Positions 50,365-52,806 of a DNA stretch of 64,000 nucleotides are shown in pieces; positions within the stretch are counted from its first letter, which is position 1; the number at the start of each line of letters is the position of its first letter. Source of the DNA: Aplysia californica (Eukaryota); NCBI RefSeq assembly GCF_000002075.1, contig NW_004797587.1:279121-343120 (forward strand), in the 5' to 3' direction. Position numbers and translations under genes: made by a program. A model generated the notes under the pieces. The model saw only the letters and a program-made list of their open reading frames with translations, was not told the origin of the DNA and did no database searches.

Positions 50365-52806
50365 GAGCATTTGCCAAAAGGTGGGATACCTGGGTGTGAC
50401 AAATGAGGTCCAAAATCAACTTTATGTAATAACTCTTTAATCACCCATATTGTATAGCCTAATGATTGCTCTTTCAGGCTCAGTAACTGCCAAAGCTGTA
50501 TATGCAATGGTCTTGGTGTAATTCTGACTTGAATGACGGAAATAGCAAAAAGTTCGTTCATAACAATGATGACACAAATTTATGAATACTTTAAGTTCCT
50601 TTCTTCAGCTAGGCTGATGTTATATTTTGAGACATAGCAAATAACTTCCAAAACTACATAGAATTGACAATTTATAAGAATCTTTATTAATTTTTGATAA
50701 AATTACTTTTTTGTGTCATAATAGTTATGAACGAACAATAAGTGACCAAAATACTATCAATTATATCAAGTTTCATCGACTAGAATTGTCTAAAATAACA
50801 CTCAATTGACTAATTATAGTCAAGTGATAAATGAAAGACCATTAAACAGCTATTTTTAAACGCAAACTGGTCTTAGGGCATATTATGCATAAATTTAAAG
50901 TTCGTTCATAACCATTATGACACACTGTTTCGTTCATAACTATTATGACAAATTTTACTTTTGGCCCCTAAAATTTACTTATATTGTTCTGTCTTTCACA
51001 TAAAACGGTTTTCATTTATGAGGCTTTCCTTAAAATGATAGATTCCTCTATGTAGGGAGAATTCAAAGTTTATATTTCCTGAAAAACCCTTAGAATATAC
51101 CTTTAAAATGGTTCGTTCATAACAATTATGACAAACTTCAATTTTGACCTAAAAATTTACTCATTTTGATCTGTCATTTTTTAAAAAAAACTTTTATTAA
51201 ATGAAACTCTCCTCATAATATGTATCTCTGTACATGTTTTTAAAGTTTGTTAACACTGAAAAGCCCTCAAAATATATAAAATGGACTATAAATAGTTCGT
51301 TCATAACCATTACTACAAAAGTATAATACTAATACTAATTAAAATCCACACCCATACACTTATGATAAAAATCAAAATATCTGAATGTATGCAAGGTCTA
51401 TTCTGTCCTTTAGTTGGGTTAAAATTAAAAATACATCCCAAAACAACTGTAAATTACATGGAATTAGGTTTCGTTCATAACCGTTATGACACACTCTTTC
51501 GTTCATAACTATTATGACAAATTTTACTTTGGGCCCAAAAAATTAACTTATTGTTCTGTCATTCACATAAAATTGTTTTAATTTATGAGACTCTCCTCAA
51601 AATAAGGTTATATGTTGGAAGAATTCAAAGTTTAATCACTGAAAAACCCTTAGAATACCTTTAATTGTTCGTTCATAACTATTATGACAAACTTCAGTTT
51701 TGACCTAAAAATTAATATTTTGACCTGTCATTTACTTTAAAATTTCATATTAAATGAAAGTTTCCTCATAATATGTATCTGTGTACATGTTTTTAATGTT
51801 TATCAACTCTGTAAAGCCCTCAGAGTACAATATGTAGTTCGTTCATAACCATTACTACAAAAGTAAAATACTAATTAAAATCCAGACCCATACACTTATC
51901 ATAAAAATCAAAATATCAGAATATAAGCAAGGTCTGATACATCCTCAAGTTGGGTTAAAATTAAAAATACATCCCAAAACAACTGTAAATTACATGGAAT
52001 AAGGTTTCGTTCATAACCATTATGACACACTGTCACGTTCATAACATGATGACAATCCATTATGACAAGCATATTTTTGCCTCTCCTTCGCTTCTCTTTT
52101 GAGTCATCAGCACGATACTCTTCCATGTTCATTCCACCATGTAAAAGGATGTTGTGAAACAGTGGGAAGTCCCTCACATGATATTTTGCAGAAATATCAT
52201 AAAGTGTTTGTTCATAACATCATTATGACAAACCTGGATTATCTCAATCAAAGTCATATTTAAGCAAAACCATGCGATGGAGCGGAAAATTACCCTTCTG
52301 ATGGATCAATGTCAAACCAATATTTAATACCGGTCATTTCCCGGGATGATATGTTTAACGATTTGGGTTTTCTAGACCTTGGAAAGTCTGATGATGTAAT
52401 TATGACACGAGTTATGAACGAACTTATAAATTTTACTCAGCAATAACATCATTAATATAAAAAAATAAAACCCTTTTAATGGACACACGCTGTTATGATG
52501 GTGTATACAAACTATTTTCAATGTTTGAATGCACTACTGTTTGATAGTTTAAGATTAACAATATTCTGTATTTAAGATACAATTACGTGTGCACTCAGGA
52601 TGAGTAAAAAATGCCCTATTTTTAGTACTATTATCTTTCTATGTAGAGATATAAGATGCACACATCAATCCACTTGCTCATGCAGCTTGACCAACTTATT
52701 TCCTTGCCATATGCATAAAGTTTTCAGAAGAAAACATATTTTACCATGAGTAGTGGTTGATTAAAAAAGTCCTCATGCAAACACCCCCACCTTTTGGCAA
52801 AAGCTC
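50365..52806. mobile_element. Non-autonomous Sola2-like DNA transposon with internal repeat array
   Basis: TIRs GAGCATTTGCCAAAAGGTGGG and CCCACCTTTTGGCAAAAGCTC match at 20 of 21 positions. The 4-bp TSD ACTT is at 50361-50364 and 52807-52810. GRG...CYC termini with a 4-bp TSD fit Sola2. No transposase ORF was seen. Confidence 0.75.
50552..52423. repeat. Array of ~14 GTTCGTTCATAACNATTATGACA motifs; ~170-185 bp monomers forming a ~550 bp higher-order repeat
   Basis: Motifs at 50552, 50712 (reverse), 50900, 50927, 51111, 51295, 51468, 51497, 51667, 51837, 52004, 52036, 52206 and 52411 (reverse). 50900-51467 aligns to 51468-52003. Confidence 0.9.

Follow-up and report, generated by a model that had tools for sequence, protein, structure and literature searches.

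The window, that is, the whole 64,000-nucleotide stretch of DNA analysed here, contains at 50365..52806 a non-autonomous Sola2-type DNA transposon of 2,442 bp, which belongs to a family (family A) with 30 full-length copies of 95-100% identity. The element is bounded by terminal inverted repeats (TIRs) of 21 bp each, the left one at 50365..50385 on the plus strand, starting with 5'-GAG, and the right one at 52786..52806 on the minus strand, with one mismatch between them. Outside the TIRs stand the two copies of a 4-bp target site duplication (TSD), ACTT, at 50361..50364 and 52807..52810, so the clean TIRs and the ACTT TSD of the original prediction are both in place. The sequence flanking the insertion, at 50350-50364 and from 52807, is a host repeat. 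To the left lies a possible first coding exon of a divergent gene (49495-49740, minus strand, ATG at 49740, no Pfam match), and to the right are a LINE-type reverse transcriptase fragment (55233-56465, plus strand, RVT_1) and a C2H2 zinc-finger ORF of 705 codons (58339-60456), with further high-copy repeats besides the LINE fragment between the element and this ORF. For the putative first-intron position originally suggested, a donor-like site, GTAAGT, is found at 50020 and an acceptor-like AG at 58283; two poly(A) runs have hardly any reads over the zinc-finger ORF and none joining these two sites, and the low read depth over the element could stem from any of its copies. In addition, one sample (X6) has ~174 extra bases at 53451/53452 relative to the window.

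The longest stop-to-stop frame of the window element has 103 codons, and the element encodes no transposase, its frames being without transposase similarity. The Sola superfamily of DNA transposons is said to have been described by Bao et al. in 2009. Sola2 termini start with 5'-GRG, and the short TIRs of family A follow this rule with GAG. A 4-bp AT-rich TSD, which is a mark of Sola2 in the consulted part of PMC3627910, is seen in family A over the 30 copies checked, and a cognate transposase with the DDD signature is found in relatives (C55 and C399) carrying the same or nearly the same TIR and motif. Hence TSD, TIR and transposase-bearing relatives agree on the Sola2-like, non-autonomous nature originally proposed.

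Inside the element, a 23-bp motif (hereafter also the word) occurs in 14 copies, 11 with at most two mismatches and three decayed, which bears out the earlier count of about 14. The left arm holds station 1 (50552..50574, plus strand, 188 bp from the left end) and the inverted station 2 (50714..50736, minus strand, 350 bp from the left end). These are followed on the plus strand by a higher-order unit at 50900..51468, composed of a doublet at 50900/50928, motifs at 51111 and 51295 and the spacers a1, b1 and c1, and by a second unit at 51469..52004, 84% identical to the first, with a doublet at 51469/51497, motifs at 51667 and 51837 and the spacers a2, b2 and c2. The array is closed by a doublet at 52005..52055 (plus strand), in which the copy at 52005 is good and that at 52033 decayed, and the two remaining decayed copies lie at 52207..52229 (plus strand) and 52401..52423 (minus strand), the latter with an exact 14-nt half. 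All others are good copies, and the start-to-start steps are 162, 186, 28, 183, 184, 174, 28, 170, 170, 168, 28, 174 and 194 bp. The spacings and doublets first proposed are correct to 1-3 bp, the exact doublets being those given above, and inverted copies do lie near both ends. The remainder of the 64-kb window has a single further match to the motif, at 6 mismatches, while the genome has 523 exact matches, with 0 for the reversed control.

Motif copies within the element are 90% identical on average, and the paired spacers have identities of 79% (a1/a2), 78% (b1/b2) and 87% (c1/c2), showing that a three-monomer unit was duplicated once, as had been claimed. The further claim that the spacers are homologous among themselves holds for a and b (62-67%, z 4-6) and not for the others: spacer c, like both spacers of the left arm, has no detectable kinship to a or b (z<=2.6). 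A perfect inverted repeat forms the 15-bp core of 8 of the 11 good copies, whereas the invariant part, in 11 of 11, is the non-palindromic 5' twelve bases, TTCGTTCATAAC. Since only 4 of 6 pairs hold in the word of the sister family C, the evidence counts against a symmetric dimer site. Likeness of the motif to the TIR is confined to TG(A/C)CA(A/C)A. A CRISPR array, which would have unique spacers of 25-45 bp between identical repeats and cas genes close by, is rejected, the spacers here being 140-165 bp long, partly duplicated and inside a eukaryotic TIR element. Also rejected is an RFX X-box, since the family A sites have 4 mismatches to the consensus GTNRCC-N0-3-RGYAAC (PMC10530576) in 11 of 11 copies.

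The original prediction hinged on the existence of other TIR-bounded copies, and these exist: the 30 full-length copies are among the best 40 of 407 candidates in the 927 Mb genome, and there are 161 exact TIR matches, from which we estimate a copy number of ~70-80. Perfect 4-bp TSDs flank 26 of the 30 copies, three have mismatched ones, and for one copy an end was not found; the TSD sequences are varied and AT-rich, ATAT being the commonest (7). The window element is 99% identical to its nearest copies, and it is inserted in another high-copy repeat; 314 empty paralogous sites of this repeat, all exact matches, have ACTT just once, against 0 for the reversed control. A single-copy flank contig extends 28 bases into the element in samples X1 (a possible source) and X7; in X5, X6 and X8, which come from a single study, it leaves the window sequence after 50364 and continues with 10 different letters. 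The insertion is therefore polymorphic, filled in two samples and empty in three.

Array length also varies. TSD-flanked family A copies have 6-15 scored motifs, which shows that the motif number is not critical. One-unit copies occur, and three-unit copies are present at five loci, with a TSD in three of the four for which both ends were found. In a tree of the element ends the three-unit copies are spread over different branches, so length changes recur. Among the 40 of 172 candidates that were scored no free-standing motif array is found, and in this set from the assembly the units number one to three and invariably lie within TIR-bounded copies, rather than forming long arrays independent of a carrier; the idea of an incipient satellite is thus not borne out. 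Two other arrangements were seen. At L063, L066, L070, L071 and L074 (C11, C27, C91, C92 and C105) there is a ~3-kb composite unit, in which the right half of the element (mostly positions 1313-2442) is combined with a 53-bp tandem array and with a repeat of ~510 bp, which also occurs in direct orientation behind the right TIR; it is a separately amplified, partly tandem unit bearing one Sola end. C32:1860722-1870815 and C60:202268-206669 are nested insertions, with a family A copy inside a family-A-ended element and a family A copy between family-C-type TIRs.

Relatives bearing a transposase fall in several families. Family B is a decayed element at C55 with the same word as family A and the same TIR (21 of 22 bases identical to the left TIR of family A), for which a TSD was looked for in the flanks and none found. 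Its stations lie at 195+, 357- and 558+ and are followed by transposase fragments and then by doublets. Family C is represented by C399 (7.9 kb, ATAT TSD), which has a near TIR and a variant word, with stations at 184+, 345-, 519/548+, 727+, 1050+, 1231+ and 1389/1424+; it has its own ~2.1-kb non-autonomous copies, and 315 exact TIR matches to the C/D-type pattern. Family E, at C83:303269-313880 (L111/L112), is a 10.6-kb element with GGG TIRs, an ATAT TSD and an uninterrupted transposase frame of 830 codons; its word, 15 bp long and unrelated, stands in 21 places, forming in the 5' arm inverted pairs 38-40 bp apart with a ~205-bp period. In family D (C631) the word is no more than weak, and family F (C389, GGC ends, delimited by self-BLAST) has no ladder, which shows that a ladder is not required across all Sola2.

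The relatives carry the Sola2 blocks DFAENY, QDE.QS.HW, HD, SDG...YK and HGK..CD..GG, compared by eye with the published alignment in the consulted part of PMC3627910 (supplement S10), and in our alignment A1 the residues D312 and D397 are invariant and D436 near-invariant. Named homologues of the Sola2-like transposase are mostly from molluscs and echinoderms, and some database homologues are labelled OTU or Vertnin; at C52:143174-144973 (L105:175-1974) a Sola2-like transposase frame precedes a weak OTU-like domain (Pfam E 0.015). For family A itself, protein searches and a DNA search with C3433 found no intact transposase with family-A ends among the best candidates in the assembly. The only partner candidates are the decayed C55 and the 2.5-kb contig C3433, whose Sola2 fragment is closest to C55; a neighbouring transposase-like fragment on this contig (L103:1-800) presumably resembles Merlin/IS1595. 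The long TIR-bounded loci C32, C3 and C92 were discarded as autonomous partners, being without transposase similarity, as was a 1,256-aa ORF in L076, a low-complexity host-like exon, and a TIR and TSD scan of 12 further transposase loci gave no credible GRG ends.

Across these families the word changes together with the enzyme. It is the same in B, 4-5 changes separate it in C, and it is unrelated in E, with transposase identities of 45-49% between C and B and about 30-35% between E and C. The stations of A, B and C keep the same order and distances (195 and 357 bp in B, 184 and 345 bp in C for stations 1 and 2), despite the left arms of A and C being 58% identical outside motif and TIR. Between the left arms of A and B, motif columns, at 75% identity, show no excess over the rest, at 71%, counting a doublet that is absent from B, and the three stations shared match at 20, 22 and 22 of 23 positions (by eye).

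Constraint on the motif was gauged from the distribution of variants among the copies. In family A, variants shared by at least two of the 30 copies (the best BLAST scorers) are found at 0 of 253 motif sites, from 11 motifs, and at 177 of 2,133 other sites (Fisher p=2e-9), and none of 20,000 random-block placements has as few shared variants as the motifs. The result is the same away from gaps (0/241 motif and 158/1,916 other sites), and with a threshold of three copies and all 14 motifs (0/322 and 68/2,064). Thus the claim that the motif is better conserved than its spacers is supported for shared variants. Private variants differ much less, being present at 25 of 253 motif sites (0.10) and 323 of 2,133 others (0.15; p=0.037). 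In family C, with 12 of 15 copies used and three longer ones excluded, shared variants occur at 2 of 126 motif and 113 of 1,917 other sites (p=0.043), while private variants are equal at both (p=0.76). In fragments of family E, 9 of 300 motif positions (3.0%) and 322 of 3,853 other positions (8.4%) depart from the C83 sequence. Shared variants mark lineages still transposing and private ones arose mostly after insertion, a pattern in these sequences suggesting that what is selected is mobility, in the transposing lineages, and not each insertion. Gene conversion between motif copies could also purge variants.

A candidate reader of the word is the transposase. In a model of the C83 ORF (571 residues, 104 sequences, pLDDT 90), the DDD core adopts an integrase-like RNase-H fold (Z 10.7, rmsd 3.4, 153 aligned) and is preceded by a helix-turn-helix (HTH)-like unit at residues 37-84 and a winged-helix-like unit at 85-167. 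Fold matches of this N-terminus are middling (Z 4-5.5), do not in themselves indicate a function, and include TnsB (Z 5.0), Tc3 and RFX5. Such a predicted two-part reader would fit an asymmetric site of 22-23 bp, and comparable asymmetric sites belong to TnsB and MuA. By sequence, Sola transposases are without a solved relative. Pfam gives no match for three of four Sola2-like ORFs and a weak OTU match for the other, and a PDB sequence search and Foldseek gave no informative match.

Since the word is kept in jumping lineages and stands at the same distances in relatives, the stations likely serve the enzyme of the element itself as docking sites. On the whole, we put at about 0.65 the probability that the window holds a non-autonomous Sola2 element of recent mobility whose motif ladder is cis-acting, selected in transposing lineages and likely made of putative binding sites for its own transposase. 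The enzyme would be supplied in trans, its predicted HTH and winged-helix region reading the asymmetric 22-23-bp word, and, by analogy with other transposons, several protomers may assemble on the left arm, where they would assist in capturing or synapsing the ends, or tune activity. The a-b-c unit would have come from an internal tandem duplication, and the shifts between one and three units from unequal exchange.

The strongest competitor, which we consider improbable though worth weighing, is that a host transcription or chromatin factor binds the word and that the transposon exploits a ladder of host-factor sites. A host factor that is needed would equally give constraint in transposing lineages, and the word is scarcely like the TIR; in addition, most stations of family B are placed like an enhancer, on the 5' side of the transposase, the word of family E contains a near-match to an RFX half-site (in 11 of 19 sites GTTRCY is found with 0-1 mismatch), and TGACA may resemble the TALE-homeodomain core. 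However, the word differs by family within one genome, tracking the divergence of TIR and transposase; the array of family C lies 3' of its transposase; promoter sites would be useless to a gene-less element, yet they are intact; and RFX in particular is at odds with the four bases by which every good family A site departs from the X-box.

Clearly less probable still is that the array is a by-product, an old tandem repeat with its motif homogenised by conversion or acting as a recombination hotspot and read by no protein, in the manner of a DTC84- or Tetris-like incipient satellite. The units are indeed tandem duplicates in one to three copies with junctions at the motif doublets, and the consulted part of PMC3879986 describes DTC84 core repeats with a junction palindrome, proposed as a hotspot of length change. 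Against this, the motifs stand between unrelated spacers, some of them inverted, the geometry is kept across families with unalignable spacers, and the near-normal private and absent shared variants of the motif are poorly predicted by conversion alone; nor are free arrays present among the candidates examined for them, and the 523 exact motif matches fit ~70 elements. Finally, adoption of the insertion by the host, to organise chromatin or to regulate either the zinc-finger gene or its divergent neighbour at 49740, is highly improbable, for although the element lies ~0.6 kb from the minus-strand ATG, 345 bp past the donor-like site and upstream of the zinc-finger ORF, it is absent in three of five samples, nearly identical to other copies and inside another repeat, and with the constraint falling on shared and not on private variants the chromatin-organising cassette once envisaged at this locus is likewise unsupported.

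The pitch of the presumed transposase sites deserves its own discussion. The 35 gaps between stations in families A-E reduce to 25 by spacer homology, and one was dropped for N; 20 of the remaining 24 homology-independent gaps fall within 155-215 or 320-395 bp, close to once or twice ~180 bp, a banding that differs from uniform with p of 2e-7 to 1e-5, the bands having been chosen post hoc on the data seen and family D contributing three 3' sites only. The pitch ranges over 157-220 bp, and A and C share a first gap of 157 bp, in which their spacers show no detectable homology. Nucleosome repeat lengths are 160-210 bp. The spacers of A show a 10.3-bp AA/TT/TA periodicity (p=0.01 against shuffles, 0.02 against genomic segments), with p of 0.14 and 0.03 in their non-redundant halves, and this signal is not repeated in B, C and E (p 0.19-0.23). 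Of the dimeric sites at nucleosome pitch suggested at first, protein binding at that pitch is the best available reading, whereas the symmetric dimer is not sustained. The 160-200-bp pitch might be kept because the sites must fall in linkers between nucleosomes, an explanation to which we give somewhat less than even odds. More speculatively, this branch of Sola2 would build its transpososome on chromatin, with protomers at family-specific linker sites one or two nucleosome lengths apart; the corollary, equally tentative, is that the nucleosome array would be structural in end recognition, the pitch being selected and the DNA between left free. If the pitch reflects nucleosomes, this would be a eukaryotic transposon with ends built to suit chromatin; otherwise subterminal repeats are neatly extended to a superfamily that has received little study. 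In either case the family offers a map in cis, with a selected 23-bp word and natural one-, two- and three-unit variants, and as resources sister families in which word and enzyme have both changed, and a locus with filled as well as empty alleles.

Compared with known systems, the element shares with Sola2 the 4-bp AT-rich TSD, short TIRs, ends following the 5'-GRG rule, relatives with the transposase blocks and the habit of leaving non-autonomous derivatives. Internal 23-bp sites at a 160-200-bp pitch in Sola2, and likewise cis requirements of Sola, had no description in the literature searched, outside which lie Repbase and, for the former, the 2009 Sola paper. The subterminal repeats of hAT and CACTA elements are short and crowded near the termini. 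The ladder resembles them in being family-specific, direct and inverted, asymmetric between the ends, kept by non-autonomous copies and conserved in mobile lineages, and differs in that its 23-bp word starts 188 bp inside and extends over 1.5 kb with a site or doublet per 170-185 bp. The hAT and CACTA repeats are cis-acting and bound by an element-encoded protein, and by analogy such binding is proposed for the Sola2 ladder. Tn7 and phage Mu have, in the TnsB end sites and the Mu end sites and enhancer, several asymmetric sites of ~22 bp read by an HTH/winged-helix DDE transposase; TnsB is, as noted, among the middling matches of the C83 N-terminus, but these systems are prokaryotic, with closely spaced sites and no nucleosomes. 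In the consulted parts of the respective papers, the TNPA protein of En/Spm (CACTA) acts on subterminal repeats, the TNPA sites, in capturing or pairing the ends (PMC2613891), the BED domains of Hermes (hAT) bind subterminal sites (PMC10368747), and subterminal sites of piggyBat can damp activity (PMC11707139). Among non-autonomous elements with tandem repeats, DTC84, Helentron/HINE and Tetris (PMC3879986, PMC7492417 and PMC4079207, each as far as consulted) likewise have ordered internal repeat variants, a variable unit number and a palindrome at unit junctions; however, their whole monomers are homologous, while the Sola2 ladder conserves a short word amid unrelated spacers, in a carrier with true TIRs and TSD. 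The element is a member of Sola2, and its ladder a variant of subterminal repeats.
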